The translations under genes were made by a program, and so were the position numbers. Source: Clostridia bacterium (lineage in GTDB: Bacteria; Bacillota; Clostridia; RUG12999). From it: a stretch of 64,000 bases of DNA. Below the pieces are notes generated by a model that saw nothing but the letters and a program-made list of their open reading frames with translations, ran no database searches and was not told where the DNA came from. Below, piece by piece: positions 7,961 to 43,140 of this stretch (the stretch's first letter is position 1; every line of letters begins with the position of its first letter). Location of the stretch: contig JAZQCS010000092.1 in the NCBI GenBank assembly GCA_045546415.1, positions 280 through 64,279 on the forward strand, given 5' to 3'.

Positions 7961-8037
7961 GCGCCAGTAGCTCAGCTGGATAGAGTGTTTGGCTACGAAC
8001 CAAAAGGTCGGGGGTTCGAACCCCTCCTGGCGTACCA
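7961..8037 (+). tRNA. tRNA-Arg (anticodon ACG)
   Basis: I folded the cloverleaf by eye. The acceptor is GCGCCAG/CTGGCGT, the anticodon loop is CTACGAA, the T-loop is GGTTCGAACCC, and the 3' CCA is encoded. Confidence 0.85.
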
Positions 8038-8059
8038 CAACTTTTTTAATTTAATATAC

Positions 8060-8151
8060 GGAGAGATGGCTGAGTTGGCTTAAGGCGCACGATTGGAAAT
8101 CGTGTGTACGTTAGTAGCGTACCGAGAGTTCGAATCTCTCTCTCTCCCCCA
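8060..8151 (+). tRNA. tRNA-Ser (anticodon GGA), class II with a long variable arm
   Basis: The acceptor is GGAGAGA/TCTCTCC, the anticodon loop is TTGGAAA, the variable-arm hairpin is GTACG...CGTAC, the T-arm is GAGAG-TTCGAAT-CTCTC, and the 3' CCA is encoded. Its 3' part contains the putative prophage att core. Confidence 0.85.
8135..8147. repeat. Putative attL core (TCTCTCTCTCTCC) inside the 3' end of tRNA-Ser
   Basis: The same 13-mer recurs at 42506-42518 and, with one inserted C, at 42685-42698 beyond the integrase gene. Confidence 0.45.
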
Positions 8152-8289: not shown

Positions 8290-8325
8290 AACAGGGGGCT
8301 TATAAAAAGTCCCCTGTTCTTTTAT
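8290..8325. terminator. Hairpin terminator shared by the tRNA operon (+) and the prophage late operon (-)
   Basis: ACAGGGGGCTT-ataaa-AAGTCCCCTGT followed by a T-rich stretch on +. It lies immediately past the stop of the 2631-aa ORF on -. Confidence 0.65.
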
Positions 8326-31629: not shown

Positions 31630-31920
31630 TTATTGTTCGGTAAGTTCATATAAAGCCTTTTCATAACTGTCGGTCTGTTTGCCTTTGTCTGTCGGCTTAT
31701 ATCCTCTTACAACTACATATCTTTCTTTTGCTTCACTATATCCACTTTCGCAAACACTTGTTATCAGGTCTTTTTCTTTTAATTTTCTTATAATGCTTCT
31801 CACAAAGTTTTGAGAATACCCAAGATGTTCGGAAATTTTAGGAACACTTGTAACTCCAATACAATCGTGTAATTCTAATTCGATACAATTATAGCAAATA
31901 TAATCCATTACTTTTTTCAC
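31630..31920 (-). CDS. Winged-helix DNA-binding protein (phage)
   Basis: 96 aa. GYSQNFVRSIIRKLKEKDLI is HTH-like. Confidence 0.5.
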   Translation of the reverse strand: MKKVMDYICYNCIELELHDCIGVTSVPKISEHLGYSQNFVRSIIRKLKEKDLITSVCESGYSEAKERYVVVRGYKPTDKGKQTDSYEKALYELTEQ

Positions 31921-31923
31921 TTG

Positions 31924-32087
31924 TCAGCACCTCTTTCTTTTGGTGTGCGTGGCTCGTAATATTCACACTTTTCGCAATATTTCTTGTCGTGAATTTCGCC
32001 TGTTAAATCGCAAATAATACGAATGTTTTTATAGCCATTTTTAGCATAAGCAAATCCTTGATGTTTACAGTTTCTTCGTTTTGCCAT
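31924..32087 (-). CDS. Small Cys-rich zinc-ribbon-like protein (unlisted ORF)
   Basis: My own translation gives MAKRRNCKHQGFAYAKNGYKNIRIICDLTGEIHDKKYCEKCEYYEPRTPKERGADK. It fills an otherwise empty gap in a tightly packed operon. Coordinates are approximate. Confidence 0.4.
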
Positions 32088-32090
32088 TGT

Positions 32091-32210
32091 TTACGCCTTC
32101 CTTTTATCTCGCAAATCTGCACATTTCATTTTGTTTGGTAGAAAATATGCACTCGGACAAGCTCCTGAAAAAGCACAATATTTACAAATGCACTCATATT
32201 CACCCATTAT
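32091..32210 (-). CDS. Small Cys-rich protein (unlisted ORF)
   Basis: My own translation gives MGEYECICKYCAFSGACPSAYFLPNKMKCADLRDKRKA. Its start overlaps the stop of the upstream gene (ATGA-type). Coordinates are approximate. Confidence 0.35.
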   Translation of the reverse strand: MMGEYECICKYCAFSGACPSAYFLPNKMKCADLRDKRKA

Positions 32211-32494
32211 GTATCTCTCCTTCCGTCCATTTTTGCACCGCAATAAGGACAGTAATCGTAATCATAGCCTGCATAATTATTACATACAGAACAATTATAA
32301 AAATCCCCGTTACTGTCCCACTCCCCATGCACCACTTCCACAACATCTGCGGTGGAATGATGTTTATGTCCTTTATTAACGGTTACACCATTGTCAATAA
32401 GATAATCTACTGCTTCGTCTATGCTATACATTATTTCGATATAAGGAGCTTCTGACAATATATCTTTTAGTTCCTCTCTTATACTTGCCATCAC
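32207..32494 (-). CDS. Small zinc-ribbon protein (phage)
   Basis: 95 aa with CSVC...CPYC motifs. Confidence 0.5.
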   Translation of the reverse strand: MMASIREELKDILSEAPYIEIMYSIDEAVDYLIDNGVTVNKGHKHHSTADVVEVVHGEWDSNGDFYNCSVCNNYAGYDYDYCPYCGAKMDGRRDT

Positions 32495-32880
32495 CCCTCA
32501 CCGCCTTTCACCTTTTCAAAATAGAACTCTATCGGCTTTTCATTTTCGATGACATTGCCATAAGCAACACCGACTTTGTAAATGTAGTTGTTTCTTAATT
32601 TTCGTGGAATTTCTTGAATGTATATGCGGAACAATTCTAACGGATTTGCTCTCTTGTAATGGTTACACATACGGCAAGAGGGCATAAGGTTTGAAATATC
32701 ATCTGTGCCTTGTTCATTCCAACCTCTTTTTGCTACAAAGTGGTCTACCTGCATATCCTTATACTCTATTTTTCTACCACAATAAGCACATCTGCCGTTG
32801 TATTTCTCATATACCTTTTGCCGTGTTTCCTTGCTTATGCTCATTCCTGCCCACCGCCTTTCTCGGTTGGGCGATACCAT
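32491..32880 (-). CDS. HNH endonuclease
   Basis: CAYCGRKIEYKDMQVDHFVAKRGW...NLMPSCRMCNHYK is an HNH motif with zinc-binding cysteines. Confidence 0.8.
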   Translation of the reverse strand: MVSPNRERRWAGMSISKETRQKVYEKYNGRCAYCGRKIEYKDMQVDHFVAKRGWNEQGTDDISNLMPSCRMCNHYKRANPLELFRIYIQEIPRKLRNNYIYKVGVAYGNVIENEKPIEFYFEKVKGGEG

Positions 32881-33974
32881 TTAATATCAAAGCACAATAA
32901 ACGCTCTGTAAATTTTTGTTCAAATTCAGTTAAAGCCCTTAATAGACTTTTGCGGTTTTTTTCATAGTTGTATTCGCAATACTCTCGAAATGACTTTGTT
33001 TTAAAAAATTGCGGTTGGTTACACCAAGAAGCAATTGCATTATACAATGTTTTATAAGGTGATAAATTGTAGTTTTCGTGCCTCATAACATACGGAAGTG
33101 CCTTATACTTCATAAGGATTAAAATACGCTCAAAAAGTTCCACAATATCTTTAACCCAAAATTCATCAGTATAAGATGAAATATCATTTGGAGTATCGTG
33201 GTTATAGCCACAAAAACAATAAAACTTCGGGATTTTGTCAGTATGCTGACGAATTAACCGTAGTTTCTTTTCAACAATTTTTCGGTCTTTTATATTGTCA
33301 AAAGCGAAAAGATAATCACCTATCCAATTTGAATCAAAAATAACTTCGCATTTTTCGTCAGTGAGTAATCTTTCATCCATACCTTGTTTAAATTGAAATC
33401 TCTTCCCAGTTGCATTAAGTTCTTCAAAAATTCCTTTCCAATCTCGGCAAGACAACACATTATCGTCTAATACGCAAATATATTTTCTATTTGGGTCAAG
33501 AAACTCGGACACTGGACTATGTAATAAGCACTGTTTATAATTCTTATTAACACAAAATGAACACCCTCTTATACAACCTCTCGTAGTAAAACCAATTGAA
33601 TAATCGGTGTAATACTGTAATTTCTTTAATTTAACTCCCAACGATAATTGTTCTTTCACAAAATCATCATACAAATGATAATCGGGCATGCTATGCTCAA
33701 CCTCGTAAGGCAATGGTTGTGCTTTGTCATAATAAAAACCAGTTCCTCCGTGTTCTACCCAAGATAAGTCCAATATTCCGTCTGGAATTTTAGTGTTAGT
33801 AAACACTTTGGAAATAAAAACTTTATCGTAATTTTCAACGGTGTCATAATTCAGCAACAATTCAACAGTATGTCCTTGTGATTTGTACCAAAACGACAGT
33901 TTCATACACGCCAAATTAGGAAAACGATGTTTTTTTCTACCAATTAAATCGGCATCAACAATTCCTATTTTCAT
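32841..33974 (-). CDS. Radical SAM protein with a B12-binding-like N-terminal domain (phage-encoded, unknown substrate)
   Basis: CxxxCxxC at residues ~134-141 (GCIRGCSFCVN). The N-terminal MKIGIVDADL...GHTVELL...KVFIS pattern resembles the flavodoxin-like B12-binding domain of class B radical SAM enzymes. Confidence 0.7.
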   Translation of the reverse strand: MKIGIVDADLIGRKKHRFPNLACMKLSFWYKSQGHTVELLLNYDTVENYDKVFISKVFTNTKIPDGILDLSWVEHGGTGFYYDKAQPLPYEVEHSMPDYHLYDDFVKEQLSLGVKLKKLQYYTDYSIGFTTRGCIRGCSFCVNKNYKQCLLHSPVSEFLDPNRKYICVLDDNVLSCRDWKGIFEELNATGKRFQFKQGMDERLLTDEKCEVIFDSNWIGDYLFAFDNIKDRKIVEKKLRLIRQHTDKIPKFYCFCGYNHDTPNDISSYTDEFWVKDIVELFERILILMKYKALPYVMRHENYNLSPYKTLYNAIASWCNQPQFFKTKSFREYCEYNYEKNRKSLLRALTEFEQKFTERLLCFDIKWYRPTEKGGGQE

Positions 33975-34417
33975 TTCCCCGCACCTTCCTTTTTGCCACC
34001 GACATAAATGTCGGTCTCAATATGCCCATCCACAAGGCTGACGGCTCTTTTTGCTTGCAAGGCTTGTTCAGCTTCTTCTTTGGTGAAATACCACATCTTA
34101 CCTATAAACGGATAAGTAATCTGCATTGTTTTGAAATTGTGTCTGTCTTTATGCCAATAAATATTTATAAACCATTCCTTTCCGTTGTACCCAAGATACA
34201 CAACTTCCCATTTTCTCGGTCTGTTATAGTGAATGTCCCATAACTCTTGCCCTATCTGCACAGGGGGAAGTTTTACTCCGTTTGCAAGAAGGTGGTCGGC
34301 ATATATTCCTAACCACTCTTCAAGTGCTAATGGAAAAGAATTCATTTCTATCACCTTTGTTTTAGCGCCTTTCAACAACTCAACCAATCTATCACGCTGT
34401 TTTTCTCGCTCTGTCAT
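33971..34417 (-). CDS. Hypothetical phage protein, translationally coupled to the radical SAM gene
   Basis: 148 aa. Its stop overlaps the radical SAM start. Confidence 0.5.
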   Translation of the reverse strand: MTEREKQRDRLVELLKGAKTKVIEMNSFPLALEEWLGIYADHLLANGVKLPPVQIGQELWDIHYNRPRKWEVVYLGYNGKEWFINIYWHKDRHNFKTMQITYPFIGKMWYFTKEEAEQALQAKRAVSLVDGHIETDIYVGGKKEGAGK

Positions 34418-34488
34418 TTTATCCTCCTATTGTTCTTGGGGCTTGTACTTTTCGACAACAAGCCCCATAATTTTATTTTTATCGACTG

Positions 34489-36093
34489 TTATTCTTCAAA
34501 AACCTTGAACAGCTTATGCGTTCCGTCCTGAAGCTGCTTTTCTTCATCAGACATTTCATACCCTAACCGGCACAGTACATCGTATATGTAGTCAAGGCGC
34601 TTGTTTTCGTTGTGCCCATAATATGTACGGTATCCCACATCGGGACCGTCAGCCCATAACACATATGCATGGCGCAGCAAAGACTGGTAAGGATTTTTTT
34701 CGACCGTTTTTTCGATTTCCGCAAATTCAATGTTCTTTTCTCCGCCTTCTTTCGTGAATTCACCACGGACATATCTCATATAATATCCGCCACGCCCTTC
34801 TTCAGTCCACTCCTTCTTCATAAGGAATTTTGTCATAGTTCCAATATTATCCTTTGCAGTGCTTTCACTCACACCAAACACAAACTCCCGGCGCAATTCA
34901 TACGCCCTCTTGGTTGCTTCCTTCAGCTGCTCCGTTGCTTTTTCCCTCTTGGCTCTCTTTTTCTCTTCTTCCTTCTGTGTCTCGGTTAATTCTTCTTTCA
35001 CCTTATCCTTGCGGAAATACACCGCACCATAATTAATTGCAAAATACTGCTCGTCACCGTTCAGTTCGAACTCTTCCATAGCATTCAAATCCACAAACGG
35101 CATATAGCTCTTTTCGCACACACTATAACCCCAGCATTTGCCGTAATCAATCTCTTTCAGCCCTGCATCCAGGAAGAACTTCCGCCATTTGGCATTGTTC
35201 TTTGCCCGTTCCTGGTCATCTAAAGCCCTGCGGATTGCATTGTTATAATTCGATGTCCCTATATCATCAAGCAGCTTGTTCCGAAGCTTTATATCCTCCA
35301 CCCGATTCAGCTTGTCCAGGTCCATTAAGGATATCTGCCTCTCCGATGCCGCTTTAAGCTTGTCCTCGTCAAGTTCTGCAAGCTTAACCCTTCTGCGCAC
35401 CGTAGTCTGAGAAAACCCTGACTTTTCTGCAATGTTTTCAATCGTGTCCCCCAAATCAAGCAAAAGCTGAAATCCTTTTGCCTGTTCATAAACCGTCAGG
35501 TCATTTCTCTGAACATTTTCCATGAGCATAACTGTCAGCTGCTCTTTATAATCCATATCAGCAATCCTGCAGGGCAATACTTCAAGCCCGGCACCCTTTG
35601 CCGCTTCAAGTCTACGGTGTCCTATTATTACAGTATATCCGTCAGGCATCCAACCTTTTTCGAGGTTTTTTTCCATCTCGGAGCTAAGCTCCGTTTCCGC
35701 TTCAAGCTTCTTTATTTCAGCCGGTGTCAGATAATGCCCCCTCACCACCGTAAGGTTTTGCATCACACCTTTTACTTTTACACTTTCTGTAAGTTCTTCT
35801 ATGTCCCGGATTTCTTTTCTTGGGTTATCCGGATGTGGAAACAATTCTGTGGCGCTTATGTAGATAAGGCGACCCTGCCGCTTCTGTATTTTTTCATTCA
35901 CATAATTGCCCCAATCCATAGCTACCTTATTTGGGCTTCCAAGTGACTTTATATCTTCTGCACCTTTGCAGCAATCACACTCTTTACCCAACCTGACAAG
36001 AGTAAAATCCTTTCCGATTCCGCCCAAACCGGGAATAGCACCGCAATCCGGACAACATCTTTTTATTTCCCTCGCCGCTTTTTCGTTCAGCAT
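34489..36093 (-). CDS. ParB/Srx-like nuclease domain protein with an N-terminal Cys cluster and a long C-terminal extension
   Basis: The ParB N-terminal domain motif is present (VIIGHRRLEAAKGAGLEVLPCRIADM). An N-terminal CCPDCG...CDCCKG zinc-finger-like segment is present. 534 aa. Confidence 0.75.
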   Translation of the reverse strand: MLNEKAAREIKRCCPDCGAIPGLGGIGKDFTLVRLGKECDCCKGAEDIKSLGSPNKVAMDWGNYVNEKIQKRQGRLIYISATELFPHPDNPRKEIRDIEELTESVKVKGVMQNLTVVRGHYLTPAEIKKLEAETELSSEMEKNLEKGWMPDGYTVIIGHRRLEAAKGAGLEVLPCRIADMDYKEQLTVMLMENVQRNDLTVYEQAKGFQLLLDLGDTIENIAEKSGFSQTTVRRRVKLAELDEDKLKAASERQISLMDLDKLNRVEDIKLRNKLLDDIGTSNYNNAIRRALDDQERAKNNAKWRKFFLDAGLKEIDYGKCWGYSVCEKSYMPFVDLNAMEEFELNGDEQYFAINYGAVYFRKDKVKEELTETQKEEEKKRAKREKATEQLKEATKRAYELRREFVFGVSESTAKDNIGTMTKFLMKKEWTEEGRGGYYMRYVRGEFTKEGGEKNIEFAEIEKTVEKNPYQSLLRHAYVLWADGPDVGYRTYYGHNENKRLDYIYDVLCRLGYEMSDEEKQLQDGTHKLFKVFEE

Positions 36094-37689: not shown

Positions 37690-38559
37690 TTACTCCTTCC
37701 CTATCAAAGCGTTTTTTTCCATAGCATCGAAATCATACTCAGTTGTACAAGAATAGTTGTTAAATTTTCCGGCGTTACTACCCTTGACACCACTTTTACC
37801 ATTTAAATACCCTTCAAACTTATTACCAAAGAGTGTTTCTGGGCGCAGGTATCTCTCCATATCTGTTCCCTTCCACTCCTTTACCTTTTTATCAATAACC
37901 GTTTTTATATCTTCCAGAGTGTACCCTTCATTTACTCTTGCAGTTATTAAAGTGATTGTCTGTTTTGTTTCAGCTTTGTAGTTTGTGCCGATAGCGCCGT
38001 TTAAGTATTCAATTGCAGCACATATAATATGCTTTATTTTAATTTCATTTTCTTTACTTTTCTTTGTGTCTTTTTTCGGTGATTTATCGGGGTTTTTACC
38101 GTGTAAACCCTTATTATTACCGTGTAAACCCTCAAAATTCGCAAAACGGATAAAGCCTTGAGTTTCATTTTCATTTAAAACCCAAAACTGCTCATCCACA
38201 TCAACAAACTGTCTTCTCTTCTTAACAGCTTCCTGAAAGCGCATTTGTATTCCGTGGGAAGTAAGAACCTTGTCCGCCATGAAAAGTGTATCATCAAACA
38301 GTGACCGTTCAAGGAAGAAGTTCATTATCTGCCCTATTTTCTCAGGACTAAAATTCAAGTCATCAGCAGCGATATCAACAAAATCTTCGTCTACTTTCAG
38401 ATAATATCCACTTTCGCGATATATCTCACATAATATGTAAAGATAAAGTGTGATACCGTCTACACCGAATCGTCCTTTAAGTGTTTTTATTTTTTTATCC
38501 CGAAAAAAGTCCGTATCCAAAGGAAAGTAAGAAAGACCTTTTTTAATTGGTCTTGCCAC
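37690..38559 (-). CDS. Phage replisome organiser / replication initiation protein (DnaD-like N-terminal domain)
   Basis: The N-terminal GLSYFPLDTDFFRDKKIKTLKGRFGVDGITLYLYILCEIY matches the phage replisome-organiser N-terminal family. 289 aa. Confidence 0.7.
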   Translation of the reverse strand: MARPIKKGLSYFPLDTDFFRDKKIKTLKGRFGVDGITLYLYILCEIYRESGYYLKVDEDFVDIAADDLNFSPEKIGQIMNFFLERSLFDDTLFMADKVLTSHGIQMRFQEAVKKRRQFVDVDEQFWVLNENETQGFIRFANFEGLHGNNKGLHGKNPDKSPKKDTKKSKENEIKIKHIICAAIEYLNGAIGTNYKAETKQTITLITARVNEGYTLEDIKTVIDKKVKEWKGTDMERYLRPETLFGNKFEGYLNGKSGVKGSNAGKFNNYSCTTEYDFDAMEKNALIGKE

Positions 38560-39785: not shown

Positions 39786-39860
39786 TACTAAGTTTTATTA
39801 AGTTTGTGAAATGTGAACAAAAACCTTCTGTAAGTTTTGTTAAGTTTTGTGAGGTGAATA
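39786..39860. repeat. Direct repeats TAAGTTTT(A/G)TTAAGTTT(T)GTGA(A/G)(A/G)TGAA (2 x ~30 bp), operator- or UP-like, between the early promoter and the cI start
   Basis: 39790-39819 and 39831-39859 are near-identical, each with an internal TAAGTTT tandem. Confidence 0.5.
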
Positions 39861-39862
39861 AA

Positions 39863-40495
39863 ATGGTAAAAAAAATCTTTGAGGAGCTCTGCAAACAAAA
39901 AGGGGTTTCTCCCACGAGTGTGTGTTCAAAGATAGGAATATCATCGGCAGCATACTCGCAATGGACGGACAAAACCGTCCCAAGAAATTCAACATTAAAA
40001 AGGATGGCTGACTACTTCGGTGTAACCACCGATGCGTTGCTTGGCTACATCGACATCGACTCTGTGCCAAACCTGCAGTCCGTTGATGAGCTTGTTGTTT
40101 TCGAGGAAATCGGAGTAATTAGTGCAGGGTATGACGGTCAGGCAATCGAAGAACACACAGGCAAAAAAATAGACCTCCCGGCAAGTATGCTGAAAGGTCT
40201 CGGAAAAGATAATTTTTTTGTTTTGCGTGTCAGAGGAAACTCAATGTATCCAAAGCTCATTGACGGGGACAGCATTCTCTGTCAGAGATGTTCTTCCGTT
40301 GACAGCGGAGATACAGCTGTTGTTCTCTACGATGGTAATGAGGCTACCGTCAAACAAGTACGATATAAACAGGGTGAGGATTGGCTTGAACTTATCCCGG
40401 TAAATCCTGAGTACGAAACCAAGCGAATCGAAGGGTTTGACCTTGAACAATGTCGCGTACTCGGTAAAGTGGTTAAATTAATAAGAGATTTTTAA
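39863..40495 (+). CDS. CI-like repressor (XRE HTH plus S24 LexA-type autopeptidase)
   Basis: HTH is SKIGISSAAYSQWTDK. The S24 domain carries Ser in GNSMYP and a Lys downstream. I place the start at ATG 39863 (RBS GAGGTG), in frame with track ORF 39806. Confidence 0.85.
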   Translation: MVKKIFEELCKQKGVSPTSVCSKIGISSAAYSQWTDKTVPRNSTLKRMADYFGVTTDALLGYIDIDSVPNLQSVDELVVFEEIGVISAGYDGQAIEEHTGKKIDLPASMLKGLGKDNFFVLRVRGNSMYPKLIDGDSILCQRCSSVDSGDTAVVLYDGNEATVKQVRYKQGEDWLELIPVNPEYETKRIEGFDLEQCRVLGKVVKLIRDF

Positions 40496-41285: not shown

Positions 41286-42416
41286 ATGAAAGAATTTTAT
41301 ATTTCCTCCACAAAATACAATATTCAAGAAAGAAAAACCAAAAAGCATGGTACGGTGTACGATGTTGTTTTTCGCATTGTAACTTTAGATGGCACAGAAA
41401 AGCAAAAGAAGCTTTCCGGATATACAACTAAAACCCTTGCCAAACAAGCTTATACGGAGTTTGTTACAGAGCATTGCGAGCTTGTTAAAAACAATCCTAT
41501 AAAAAAGAAAAACACAGATAAAGAAACCCCTACTGTTGGTGAGCTTATAAGGCAATATCTTGCAACGCTATCCAACCAGAATAAGGAAAGCTCAATTTAC
41601 GATAAACAAAACATATATAGGTTATTTGTTCTGCCGCACTATGATGATACGAAGATAACCGCACTTACCAAAGAGGAACTTTATTTGTGGCAAGACAAAT
41701 TATGGGCAACTAAGAACCCACGAACGAATGATTTCTATTCATATAAGTACCTATACAAAGTCCGAACTCATTTCCAGGCTTTCCTTGCCTGGGTGGAAAG
41801 CCGTTATGGATTTAAAAATTTCTTTCCCGAGGTTGCAAAACCCAAGCGCAGAACCGCAAAAACAAAAATGGAATTTTGGAAAAGAGAGGATTTTGAAAAA
41901 TTTATTTCTGTAATTGATGACCCCATGTATCACTGCCTATTTACTATGATGTTTTTTACAGGTAGACGAAAAGGTGAGATTTTCGCTCTTTCCCCCGATG
42001 ATGTTCAGGAGAGCACCATATCCTTCACTAAATCCTTAACAAGAAAAACACTCGATGGCAGCGCTTATAAAATCACCACAACAAAAACGGATAAGAATCA
42101 GGTAGTCCCGATTTGTGAAACACTCATAAAGGAACTACACAATTATTCACCCCAAACACCCTTTTTCTTCGGTGGAGAAAGACCACTTGCCGAAAAAACT
42201 GTTACTCGTGTTTTTGACAGAGGCTGCGAGCTCGCCGGTGTAAAAAGAATACGCATACATGATTTAAGACACTCCTTTGTATCTATGCTTATTCACCTTG
42301 GAGCCAACCTGATGGTTGTTGCTGACCTTATAGGCGATACCGTTGAGCAGGTGACAAAAACATACGGTCATTTATATGAGTCAGACAAGCTTGATATTAT
42401 ATCTAAAATAAAGTGA
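41286..42416 (+). CDS. int: Tyrosine-type site-specific integrase
   Basis: The C-terminal catalytic region carries HDLRHSF...LIGDTVEQVTKTYGHL (R-H-R-Y pattern) and an N-terminal SAM-like/AP2-like domain. RBS AGGAGA precedes the start. Confidence 0.9.
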   Translation: MKEFYISSTKYNIQERKTKKHGTVYDVVFRIVTLDGTEKQKKLSGYTTKTLAKQAYTEFVTEHCELVKNNPIKKKNTDKETPTVGELIRQYLATLSNQNKESSIYDKQNIYRLFVLPHYDDTKITALTKEELYLWQDKLWATKNPRTNDFYSYKYLYKVRTHFQAFLAWVESRYGFKNFFPEVAKPKRRTAKTKMEFWKREDFEKFISVIDDPMYHCLFTMMFFTGRRKGEIFALSPDDVQESTISFTKSLTRKTLDGSAYKITTTKTDKNQVVPICETLIKELHNYSPQTPFFFGGERPLAEKTVTRVFDRGCELAGVKRIRIHDLRHSFVSMLIHLGANLMVVADLIGDTVEQVTKTYGHLYESDKLDIISKIK

Positions 42417-42505: not shown

Positions 42506-42593
42506 TCTCTCTCTCTCCGCCAAGCAAAAAGCATCACCTTTCGGTGGTGCTTTTTGTCTTACAGGAGACGAGAGAGTGAGAACTCTCTGCAAG
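42506..42593. repeat. att-like direct repeat copy 1 (putative attR): the 13-nt tRNA-Ser core plus ~75 bp containing a terminator-like hairpin
   Basis: TCTCTCTCTCTCC-GCCAAGCAAAAAGCATCACCtttcGGTGGTGCTTTTTGTCTT-ACAGGAGACGAGAGAGTGAGAACTCTCTGCAAG. The core is identical to 8135-8147. Confidence 0.55.
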
Positions 42594-42684: not shown

Positions 42685-42773
42685 TCTCCTCTCTCTCCGC
42701 CAAGCAAAAAGCATCACCTATTGGTGGTGCTTTTTGTCTTGCAGGAGACGAGAGAGTGAGAACTCTCTGCAAG
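42685..42773. repeat. att-like direct repeat copy 2 (~95% identical to copy 1), abutting the remnant of the giant gene
   Basis: Copy 2 has the same 87-bp unit with 3-4 substitutions and one extra C in the core. Homology to the internal region of the giant gene starts at its right edge. Confidence 0.55.
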
Positions 42774-43140
42774 CCGTTCCAGATATATTTCCTCAGCAGT
42801 TTTTGACGGTCCTGCAATAGAAAAAGGATTTTTTTGTGAATTTTTCTCACCTTTTTGTATAGAATTATTATCGGTAGAATTATACTCCGTAGATTTTTTT
42901 TCATTTTTAGCCTTGACAATGTTTCGACTTTGGTGTACAATATTAGCGGAAAATCCAAGTTTCTCTAATGACTTAAGGAAATAGACCTTATTGTCGTTAG
43001 TGATTATCTTGGATTTTTCCATTTTATCAAGATTAACAAAATTGCTATTGTTCGTTGCTATGTCCGCAAAACCTTCTGTATACACATTGATTCTTTCGTC
43101 CTCATTTTTTATGGCTATTATAATAGGCAATCCATCCGGA
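42766..43140 (-). pseudogene. Degenerate fragment (about 90% nt identity) of the internal region of a giant-gene homologue; remnant of a second prophage copy
   Basis: 42781-43030 aligns to 11901-12170 and 43030-43140 to 12260-12370 of the intact gene. It has an in-frame 93-nt deletion. Track ORF 42714..43178 translates to ...DGLPIIIAIKNEDERINVYTEGFADIATNNSNF...AEEIYLERLAE, matching the giant protein. Confidence 0.7.

Follow-up and report, generated by a model that had tools for sequence, protein, structure and literature searches.

A divergent radical-SAM enzyme of a prophage as a predicted orphan DNA-modification writer related to enzymes of PbeABCD operons

What does a radical-SAM enzyme do in a prophage, and do the genes that surround it belong to it? 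This question is raised by a locus of the window, the 64,000-nucleotide stretch of DNA analysed here, in which the original prediction saw a functional cluster comprising a radical-SAM enzyme, an HNH endonuclease, a 148-residue protein, a ParB/Srx-like protein and small Cys-rich proteins, with a possible role in nucleic-acid modification or anti-defence. All of these ORFs are present on the minus strand, at the coordinates given below. The central gene, rSAM (32841..33974, minus strand), encodes a radical-SAM enzyme of 377 residues, which we predict to be an orphan DNA-modification writer.

The CxxxCxxC motif expected at residues 134-141 is present in the ORF translation (G-C134-IRG-C138-SF-C141-VN) and conserved in the family. 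As 56 of the 58 full-length representatives of the clusters possess it, and as C134, C138, and C141 are invariant, along with 14 further residues, in an alignment of 45 sequences of 33-65% identity, it is not a chance occurrence. The AF2 model (pLDDT 86.9) exhibits a Rossmann-like N-domain (approximately residues 1-78), a linker bearing the invariant motifs GGTG and PDY..Y, a radical-SAM barrel against which the N-domain packs, and a helical C-terminal region. The TIM-barrel core fold of radical-SAM enzymes, which can be partial or full, is thus found in rSAM. The predicted flavodoxin/B12-binding-like N-terminus is borne out at the level of the fold. Nevertheless, the N-domain is minimal, with approximately 78 residues and four strands, and on this model appears too small for cobalamin binding to be asserted; it has no match to PF02310 in Pfam.

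With regard to the residues beyond CxxxCxxC, the literal GGE motif is absent from the sequence, whereas the fold and the other invariant residues keep rSAM in the radical-SAM superfamily. The place where GGE is expected, directly after the second core strand, is occupied by L169-D170-D171-N172, which are invariant or near-invariant. A Pfam scan gave no match of the prophage rSAM to PF04055 at E <= 0.1, and weak matches for 20 of 45 relatives, the best of which (E = 1e-4) is under the 29.5-bit cut-off. PHROG 9298 ('radical SAM domain protein') matches rSAM with E = 2.4e-46 (residues 1-338 against positions 1-297 of the 305 of the profile). rSAM is therefore a genuine radical-SAM enzyme, albeit a very divergent one, and its N-domain is B12-binding-like. 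It looks active, with one predicted [4Fe-4S] cluster on C134, C138, and C141. Assignment to a housekeeping family would have spoken against the original prediction, and we found no relationship to NrdG/NrdD, QueE, viperin or SPASM proteins.

The rSAM family is large and uncharacterised, and was found in anaerobes and their viruses only. The supposed rarity of such enzymes in phages holds for deposited phage records, 17 of which, out of 50,697, contain a homologue, but not for metagenomes, with 5,574 protein clusters of the family, nor for a collection with one genome per species (564 matches, 185,579 species). In an NJ tree, phage and cellular rSAMs form separate sister clades and, as such, their functions could have diverged.

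The cellular sister clade is fused to, or adjoins, a DNA-binding wHTH ('KYGENH' domain), and rSAM is the first gene of a conserved operon with the order rSAM-wHTH-PbeA-PbeB-PbeC-PbeD. The downstream genes match PbeA (E = 1e-219) and PbeC (E = 8.5e-103), between which a small ORF is found, and PbeD matches PF27807. A family rSAM was observed in 66 of 80 metagenome loci gathered via the wHTH domain, 44 times as a fusion; of the 50 loci whose downstream sequence was long enough, 47 contain PbeA. In L171, an unfused rSAM of 370 residues lies directly upstream of PbeA/C/D; in L147, L152, and L209, rSAM is likewise unfused, and the gene immediately upstream encodes the same wHTH joined to a PLD/HKD nuclease domain. 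By analogy, a wHTH common to nuclease and rSAM follows the logic of restriction-modification pairs. The family-invariant residues are all kept in 62 distinct rSAMs from defence loci, and CxxxCxxC is present in 59 of them, the remaining three being gapped at those positions. Methyltransferases of three phage-derived seed classes were not found in the rSAM-Pbe operons. For PbeABCD / CxC-ABC systems, either DndCDEA or a C5/N4 methylase has been described as the modification partner (PMC10853773, PMC6459918), and no description of an rSAM coupled to PbeABCD was found in the literature searched.

An HMM scan of the window in all six frames detected neither the wHTH nor Pbe genes, rSAM being the sole match. 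As a result, the prophage rSAM is, from its sequence, an orphan homologue belonging to the same catalytic family as the operon rSAMs and not a member of an rSAM-wHTH-PbeABCD system, and its link to Pbe rests on the 33-51% identity that it shares, over at least 250 residues, with the Pbe-operon rSAMs.

In phages, the genes next to rSAM were counted in the 75 loci that remained after de-duplication at 80% identity. Of the 150 immediate neighbours, 26 are DNA methyltransferases, versus 6 of the 150 genes at positions ±5/6 (Fisher p = 2.6e-4; the loci are not phylogenetically independent). ParB-MTase fusions, which are ParB_N proteins, represent 11 of 150 neighbours, versus at most 1 of 150 in controls. 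No more than roughly one phage locus in three has an adjacent methyltransferase, and a MetK-like SAM synthetase is found within ±3 genes of rSAM in 10 of 84 loci. In the prophage itself, none of the three seed classes of methyltransferase was found.

Based on these observations, we propose, with a probability of about 0.5, that the prophage rSAM is an orphan DNA-modification writer that serves anti-restriction, while its cellular kin would mark self DNA in PbeABCD operons. The fold, the conserved motifs and the gene contexts with their statistics are observations; a DNA substrate, a writer role and an anti-restriction role are what we infer. The methyltransferase neighbours, the modification slot of PbeABCD and the wHTH fusion lend comparative support to the nucleic-acid modification or anti-defence role of the original prediction. 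rSAM would cleave SAM reductively and use the radical thus formed to mark DNA covalently. It may also employ a second SAM or a corrinoid, in which case the mark would be a C-methylation or an alkylation. In the cell, rSAM would mark self DNA with the help of the sequence-reading wHTH, and the PbeA HKD-nuclease/helicase and the PbeC ATPase would act on unmarked invader DNA. The prophage rSAM would be expressed from an early-to-middle operon, between the replication and the packaging genes, and would pre-mark the phage DNA, which could in this way evade Pbe-kind restriction, as orphan phage methyltransferases allow.

Alternatively, the rSAM of the Pbe operons could be an effector or a sensor instead of a writer, acting by radical DNA damage or through a viperin-like toxic nucleotide, and the phage copy could be a decoy, an antidote or an enzyme of nucleotide metabolism. 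Radical-SAM effectors exist, as exemplified by the prokaryotic viperins. Some fused homologues are located in defence islands without Pbe genes, beside GmrSD or beside TIR and NurA/HerA, and genes for ThyX (thymidylate synthase), nucleoside-hydrolase-like proteins and PAPS reductases now and then flank the phage rSAMs. In contrast, rSAM holds the first-gene slot of the Pbe operons, which is given to modification genes in the literature, and its DNA-reading domain also occurs on a nuclease, as in restriction-modification pairs. Thousands of phages carry rSAM beside orphan methyltransferases, which is ill-suited to a toxic effector. We consider this alternative unlikely.

The nearest solved structures raise the possibility that rSAM modifies RNA or protein, since these enzymes act on proteins, RNA, and small molecules and not on DNA. 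rSAM could then methylate carbons of tRNA or rRNA, or modify a phage or host protein, in the service of host takeover or of resistance to translation-targeting defences. The median pI of the family (8.7) fits any nucleic-acid substrate. Nevertheless, the family possesses neither the three-Cys auxiliary cluster nor the TRAM domain of methylthiotransferases, and tRNA or ribosomal partners do not recur beside it. Its contexts are instead DNA methyltransferases, HKD-nuclease/helicase genes, a FokI/MarR-like wHTH, and a DndE-like gene, which makes an RNA or protein substrate rather improbable.

The prophage neighbours bear on another proposal, according to which ParB534, p148, rSAM, and HNH constitute one nucleic-acid modification or anti-defence module, where the ParB-like protein would load on DNA and p148 and HNH would be accessory subunits. 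The gene of p148 (148 residues, 33971..34417, minus strand) carries a strong ribosome-binding site, AGGAGG, and a direct reading of its junction with rSAM shows ATGA, in which the rSAM ATG and the p148 TGA stop overlap. The HNH endonuclease (32491..32880, minus strand; PF01844, 40.6 bits for a cut-off of 21.4; PHROG 2118, E = 3.8e-35) would have 129 residues from its first ATG, with an overlap of 40 nt with the rSAM 3' end. As the ATG of Met13 (32844) overlaps the rSAM TGA stop as ATGA, a start at 32844, with a product of 117 residues, is more likely. ATGA overlaps thus link rSAM to p148 and, from Met13, to HNH, in line with the predicted coupling, and no terminator was found inside the block. 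ParB_N domains are enriched beside the rSAM family, a second type of cellular operon comprises rSAM and the wHTH together with an SNF2-like helicase and two ParB_N-like genes, and the gene adjoining P0138 shows a weak ParB_N match.

ParB534 (534 residues, 34489..36093, minus strand) is, as anticipated, a ParB_N protein with an N-terminal Cys-rich, Zn-ribbon-like segment (CCPDCG...CDCCKG) and a C-terminal extension of approximately 250 residues for which Pfam has no family. It matches PF02195 (ParB_N, 43 bits, cut-off 26.3), PF17762 (HTH_ParB, 28.4 bits, cut-off 22.6), TIGR00180 (NCBIfam parB_part, 72 bits, cut-off 58.45), and PHROG 6218 (E = 2.6e-77), and its sequence includes GHRR (GxxRR box). 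The extension is shared with Faecalibacterium phage Roos (match over residues 76-531), and further homologues are present in Gordonia and Arthrobacter phages, none of whose records are among the rSAM matches of the phage database. No ParA-like gene was noticed among the annotated prophage ORFs. As for the small Cys-rich proteins, p95 (95 residues, 32207..32494, minus strand) has a C-terminal CxxC...CxxC zinc ribbon, with weak Zn_ribbon_15 and DZR matches and a match to PHROG 22543 (E = 8.6e-6). The candidate Cys-rich ORFs p50 (50 residues, 32091..32243) and p56 (56 residues, 31917..32087), both on the minus strand, are present in the ORF list and have no family match in Pfam or PHROG.

Against a single module, no homologue of p148, ParB534 or HNH was found near rSAM in the 83 loci searched (tblastn, E <= 1e-5), HNH is not among the top neighbour families, and the closest rSAM relative (78% identity) lies in a different phage backbone with different neighbour genes. 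p148 has no match in Pfam, NCBIfam, PADLOC or the phage database, and belongs to a small family (77 clusters); in the two contexts examined (L090 and L091), its homologues are in phage early regions without rSAM, and homologues of ParB534 likewise exist without rSAM. The GC content of the rSAM gene is 33%, versus 40-45% in the neighbour genes, which indicates mosaic junctions around it. Finally, hhalign matches ParB534 to the cellular ParB_N-like partners, on the GxxR box, with an E no better than 0.04. The proposed cluster is thus not a conserved unit, p148 being a neighbour and not a conserved partner, and a function of these four genes as one module is quite improbable. ParB534 is a common phage early-region protein, tied to rSAM at the domain level only: it is the ParB_N domain, in the phage MTase fusions and in the second cellular operon, and not ParB534 itself, that recurs as a partner.

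That rSAM counters SAM-dependent defences by using up SAM, as an analogue of T3 SAM lyase, is highly improbable: radical-SAM enzymes cleave SAM and the gene sits in an anti-restriction-type region, but the frequent phage SAM synthetase and SAM-dependent methyltransferases beside rSAM are the opposite of depletion, and the wHTH fusion and the many conserved putative substrate-side residues point to a specific macromolecular substrate.

The reading of rSAM as a DNA-modification writer could extend to the whole family, which may install a new radical-SAM-dependent DNA mark that is the self label of PbeABCD-type and of rSAM/ParB_N-like/SNF2-helicase systems and is counterfeited by the orphan writers of phages. 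This extension is tentative, and we give it somewhat less than an even chance. If true, the mark could, for example, consist of a methyl or alkyl group on a non-nucleophilic carbon in the base, sugar or backbone, and orphan writers would be present in thousands of phages of anaerobes, this prophage among them.

Several known enzymes were compared with rSAM. The methylthiotransferases RimO/MiaB are rejected, as the three-Cys cluster would be expected in the N-domain, where C23, which is not family-invariant, is the only Cys, and as the C-terminus is helical instead of forming a TRAM domain. NrdG is rejected as well, rSAM having no such match in NCBIfam or Pfam and no glycyl-radical-enzyme family being present among the 25 commonest Pfam families of immediate neighbours. 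The QueE/Dpd 7-deazaguanine pathway, characterised by a QueE-like fold and QueC/QueD/DpdA partners, does not correspond to rSAM either. The class B (cobalamin-dependent) radical-SAM enzymes, of which MgmA/QCMT (PDB 9ccb) is the closest, and AprD4 share 12-16% identity with rSAM. The class 1 cobalamin-binding domain has five strands and five helices (PMC12931638), versus approximately 78 residues and four strands in rSAM, and the substrates differ; AprD4 is Rossmann-like, yet cobalamin-free. Pseudomonas phage M6 gp53, a radical-SAM isomerase of 5-NedU thymidine hypermodification, was called by its authors in 2021 the first radical-SAM enzyme installing a DNA modification (PMC8989533). Like rSAM it is phage-encoded, but it resembles spore-photoproduct lyase and thus differs in fold subclass, and it acts within a multi-enzyme 5-hmdU pathway alongside a kinase, a PLP enzyme, and an aGPT-Pplase; no such partners are found with rSAM.

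The cellular operons resemble the DndCDEA-PbeABCD and CxC-ABC-ATPase systems (Xiong 2019, PMC6459918; Aravind lab 2024, PMC10853773) in that a clear PbeA, a small ORF, PbeC, and PbeD lie downstream of the cellular rSAM. In contrast to these systems, the modification module is rSAM with the wHTH, in place of the phosphorothioation machinery or a cytosine methylase, and the window contains rSAM only. The likeness of the prophage rSAM is to the orphan phage DNA methyltransferases (ParB_N-N6/N4 MTase fusions and Dcm-type C5 MTases). Fold and chemistry differ, rSAM being a radical, Fe-S-dependent enzyme and the methyltransferases SN2 enzymes with a Rossmann fold; moreover, the rSAM family is restricted to anaerobes and the phage rSAM carries no recognisable target-recognition domain. 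However, both occupy the same niche, the gap between replication and packaging genes, where the methyltransferases often lie right next to rSAM, in translational coupling with it, both need SAM, both are related to cellular enzymes of a modification-restriction operon, and both have the same predicted role, the pre-emptive self-marking of phage DNA.

The 377-aa radical-SAM protein (rSAM; window 32841-33974, minus strand) gave no match in Pfam, NCBIfam, PADLOC or, by phmmer and hmmsearch, in the PDB sequences, its sole sequence match being PHROG 9298, a "radical SAM domain protein" (E = 2.4e-46). Its AF2 model is confident (pLDDT 86.9) and exhibits a four-stranded Rossmann-like domain (approximately residues 1-78), a helical linker and a radical-SAM barrel, in this order. 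The matches of a BFVD fold search were all viral radical-SAM proteins, either unnamed or generic. In the fold comparison, the values were 16.1 for MgmA, 14.7 for AprD4, 14.6 for RimO, 13.8 for MiaB, 13.0 for CysS, 12.5 for TsrM, and approximately 7 each for viperin, QueE, Cfr/RlmN and PFL activase; the substrates of the closest solved structures are proteins, RNA or small molecules. Among 45 relatives sharing 33-65% identity, the three cysteines of the CxxxCxxC motif (C134, C138, and C141) are invariant, as are N20, F58, G77, G79, L88, Y102, D170, Q197, G198, D200, R202, D226, R283, and M297. The GGE motif is not present literally, L-D-D-N being found instead. Given this fold, these conserved residues and the replacement of GGE, the protein belongs genuinely within the radical-SAM superfamily, although it has diverged strongly. 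An auxiliary Fe-S cluster was considered and rejected: as the additional cysteines (C23, C149, C176, C209, C255, and C318) are kept in close relatives only, a single Fe-S cluster is expected. The cobalamin domain comprises five strands and five helices, and cobalamin-free look-alikes such as AprD4 exist (PMC12931638); the N-terminal domain of rSAM, which may or may not bind cobalamin, is small and has four strands. The pI of rSAM is 8.1, with a family median of 8.7. One homologue (P0122, 734 aa) is interrupted by a LAGLIDADG intein, and one locus carries two rSAM paralogues with approximately 3 kb between them (L100:9430-10569; L numbers denote homologue-bearing loci, each with its own coordinates).

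The gene belongs to a prophage of approximately 34 kb within the window, a setting that includes tRNA-Arg and tRNA-Ser genes (7961-8151), an S24/HTH repressor (39806-40495) and a tyrosine integrase (41286-42416). The genes of interest form a single long, tightly packed block on the minus strand, which comprises, in order, a Lin1244/Phg_2220 replication protein, a 189-aa ORF, an HNH protein, SSB, a 91-aa ORF, a 534-aa ParB-like protein (ParB534; 34489-36093), a 148-aa protein (p148; 33971-34417), rSAM, a 129-aa HNH protein (32491-32880), small Cys-rich ORFs, a wHTH protein, further small ORFs, a putative small terminase recognised by position only, without a family match, and a 451-aa ORF assigned as the large terminase by sequence and position and not by family search. 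The ParB-like-to-HNH stretch was examined for minus-strand terminator-like sites, and none was present. When read directly, the junction between p148 and rSAM is an ATGA overlap, and that between rSAM and HNH is a second one, provided that HNH starts at Met13 (32844). The ORF check bore out the coordinates, lengths and motifs that the original prediction had given for the cluster genes, and ParB_N, HTH_ParB and HNH all passed the Pfam cut-offs. A megablast of the 10-kb region against known phages gave 0 matches.

Several other features of this DNA were recorded. The 71-nt gap between the ParB-like and p148 genes holds a hairpin (34438-34466) whose 9-bp stem is GC-rich (GGGGCTTGT...ACAAGCCCC) and which lacks a T-run; it may serve in RNA processing or attenuation, or be the scar of a recombination at the boundary between modules. 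Within the replication gene, two tandem 21-nt repeats (38093-38134), TTTTTACCGTGTAAACCCTTA and a 90% copy, may be origin iterons. The integrase gene is adjoined by an 85-nt direct repeat with 96% identity (42509-42593 and 42689-42773, 180 nt apart), each copy of which exhibits a hairpin followed by a T-run. Just past the integrase, a segment of approximately 376 nt (42765-43140) repeats a sequence at 11895-12366, inside a giant 2631-aa ORF (8325-16220, minus strand), with 268 nt at 91% identity and 108 nt at 100%. It is not the template/variable pair of a diversity-generating retroelement, as the mismatches are not confined to adenines and the 379-aa ORF close by encodes a membrane protein; it could have been left behind by recombination or by an earlier integration.

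The ParB-like, p148, rSAM and HNH genes had been proposed to form a four-gene functional cluster. This grouping failed, as a tblastn comparison (E ≤ 1e-5) of all 18 block proteins with 83 rSAM-homologue loci found rSAM alone. Even the 78%-identical homologue lies in a different phage backbone, among genes for a DUF3799 exonuclease, AAA_24, a helicase, a C5 methylase, VRR-NUC and a D5 primase. The p148 family comprises 77 clusters, whose examined members occur in phage early regions without rSAM, and p148 itself gave 0 matches in the phage database. Homologues of ParB534 are found in Faecalibacterium, Gordonia and Arthrobacter phages, and no Gordonia or Arthrobacter phage is among the phage-database matches of rSAM. 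The GC content of the rSAM gene is 33.3% (GC3 28.8%), versus 40.9% for p148, 44.5% for ParB534 and 40.5% for HNH, and this contrast with overlapping genes suggests that the cassette was exchanged recently, at very precise junctions. Because its neighbours do not recur, its backbone differs and its GC content deviates, the rSAM gene is best described as what it behaves as, a mobile single-gene cassette.

The family is large. A word-indexed search gave 5,574 protein clusters at 90% identity, with no Pfam domain among the 120 matches listed, and a profile search gave 2,870 clusters at 50% identity. Of the 50,697 phage records deposited, only 17 have a homologue, and these are viruses of Oscillospiraceae, Clostridium tetani, Bacteroides/Phocaeicola, Marinitoga and Methanomassiliicoccales. 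A collection of 185,579 species genomes gave 564 matches, and nearly all of the best 80 belong to anaerobic lineages or come from anaerobic habitats. Judging by its relatives, the window prophage probably has a Clostridia host of the Oscillospiraceae type.

Gene clustering in 71 viral loci identified as recurrent neighbours ParB_N-N6/N4 methyltransferase fusions, C5 methyltransferases and a MetK-like SAM synthetase, together with a P27-type small terminase, HNH, ThyX and an Amidoligase_2 protein. A Pfam census of the two genes next to rSAM, in 75 loci left after de-duplication at 80% identity, counted 16 N6_N4_Mtase, 8 C5 DNA_methylase, 2 MT-A70, 11 ParB_N and 4 PAPS_reduct domains; control genes at positions ±5/6 yielded 5 C5 methylases and 1 N6_N4 methylase. 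Methyltransferases thus account for 26/150 neighbours versus 6/150 controls (Fisher's exact p = 2.6e-4, with non-independent loci), and since the loci are not independent, this enrichment is supportive and not proof. The window prophage has none of the three methyltransferase classes tested. Many related phages (L001, L043, L059-L069 and relatives), from IMG/VR and including Oscillospiraceae phage NatCom_21982, exhibit a block around the small-terminase gene, upstream of the large terminase, with HNH, P27-type TerS, the MetK-like synthetase, a ParB_N-N6 methyltransferase, rSAM, a C5 methyltransferase and often the Amidoligase_2 gene.

With regard to cellular homologues, long family members (620-740 aa) exhibit an additional C-terminal part, consisting of a Cys-containing linker and a domain of approximately 180 aa with a KYGENH motif, the DNA-binding domain hereafter called KYGENH wHTH. 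In four loci (L146:631-7245, L148:6001-12141, L162:1899-8572, and L155:6001-12534), the fused rSAM-wHTH gene is followed by PbeA (PADLOC, E = 1e-219), a 58-68-aa ORF, a DndD-like PbeC (E = 8.5e-103) and a 140-170-aa ORF. In L162, a small XRE-type HTH gene lies 5' of the operon (PADLOC HTH matches). In L171 (5986-11764), an unfused 370-aa rSAM is directly upstream of PbeA/C/D, and in L177 (8001-14664), an integrative conjugative element carries the operon, whose last gene matches the Dnd-associated family PF27807. Most of L181-L258 also carry the operon. A word-indexed search with the wHTH profile gave 5 proteins only, and a scan of metagenome DNA with the wHTH motif was used instead, which gave 80 loci. 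An rSAM of the family is present in 66 of them (44 fused, 22 as separate genes of 364-400 aa), and PbeA in 47 of the 50 that extend 2.5 kb or more downstream, where PbeB-like, PbeC and PbeD genes normally come after it; no methyltransferase in these loci matched the three seed classes from phage loci. The 62 distinct rSAMs of these loci share 33-51% identity with the window protein and retain every one of its invariant residues. An NJ tree places the cellular copies in one clade, whose sister comprises the phage and prophage copies, including that of the window. The two clades are separate, and their functions could differ. The wider result is this conserved rSAM-wHTH-PbeABCD operon together with thousands of orphan phage homologues.

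Other cellular architectures were also observed. In L147 (4792-7587), L209 (8359-11154) and L152 (5098-7110), the KYGENH wHTH is joined to a PLD/HKD nuclease-like domain (DrmC-like, E = 7e-12), and this fusion gene lies directly upstream of an unfused rSAM, the pair being followed in L147 and L209 by a 149-aa ORF. This looks like a minimal restriction-modification-like pair, because the nuclease and the putative modifier have one DNA-reading module in common. A second operon type (L214:3713-9474, L217:3745-9492, L239:445-8990, L158:1599-6623, and L212:156-3301) comprises, in order, rSAM, a ParB_N-like gene (approximately 335 aa), an ORF of approximately 140 aa resembling a PD-(D/E)xK nuclease, a SNF2-like helicase (approximately 495 aa), a second ParB_N-like gene (approximately 330 aa) and a KYGENH wHTH protein. 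ParB534 shows distant similarity to these ParB_N-like proteins (E = 0.04), and p148 shows none to the wHTH partner domain. Fused rSAM-wHTH genes without Pbe genes also occur in defence islands (L174:5567-9479 and L175:8001-13875), one adjoining a GmrSD type IV restriction enzyme and another a ThsB-like TIR and NurA/HerA.

As judged from sequence comparisons, the most economical reading of the rSAM family is a writer of DNA modification. In cells, the wHTH would target the rSAM writer, with Pbe-type restriction as its partner; in phages, rSAM would be an orphan writer travelling with orphan methyltransferases. The window copy has no KYGENH wHTH, and Pbe genes are absent from the window. This copy might reach DNA through its own basic helical C-terminus or through a ParB_N-type clamp partner, and the latter idea gains some support because the second cellular operon type joins rSAM with ParB_N-like genes. 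The window gene thus encodes a real, unusual radical-SAM enzyme, which probably has a DNA-modification and anti-restriction role; this part of the original prediction, a nucleic-acid modification or anti-defence function, is retained, whereas action within a four-gene cluster is not.

Methylation, phosphorothioation and 7-deazaguanine are DNA marks already established in prokaryotic self/non-self discrimination. If our reading is correct, they would be joined by an epigenetic DNA mark of a new chemical class, and radical-SAM writers would constitute a new enzyme class in this discrimination. It would also explain a very abundant phage gene of gut and rumen viromes to which no function has been assigned, for which no Pfam or NCBIfam model exists at present, and would provide a clean experimental pair, namely the cellular writer-plus-restriction operon and the phage orphan writers. 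Uncharacterised DNA marks in anaerobes also bear on sequencing signal, on transformation barriers in gut commensals and on the prediction of phage host range.

We found no literature that deals with the family or connects radical SAM with Pbe, a prior mention in Krishnan et al. 2020 being possible, and no radical-SAM example of DNA modification later than gp53 of phage M6, which its authors called in 2021 the first radical-SAM enzyme known to put a modification on DNA (PMC8989533). The gp53 enzyme resembles spore-photoproduct lyase and belongs to another pathway (PMC8989533). We regard the operon and its orphan phage homologues as a novel variant within immunity and counter-immunity based on modification. 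PbeABCD first appeared in the literature as the antiviral module paired with phosphorothioation by DndCDEA (PMC6459918) and was later re-annotated as the CxC-ABC-ATPase system, comprising an HKD-nuclease/SF2 helicase, a small protein, a CxC ABC ATPase and a DndE cognate, with phosphorothioation or C5/N4 methylation as the modification component and a proposed function in self/non-self discrimination (PMC10853773). The cellular operon appears to be an undescribed variant of this PbeABCD/CxC-ABC defence, in which a radical-SAM gene occupies the modification slot.
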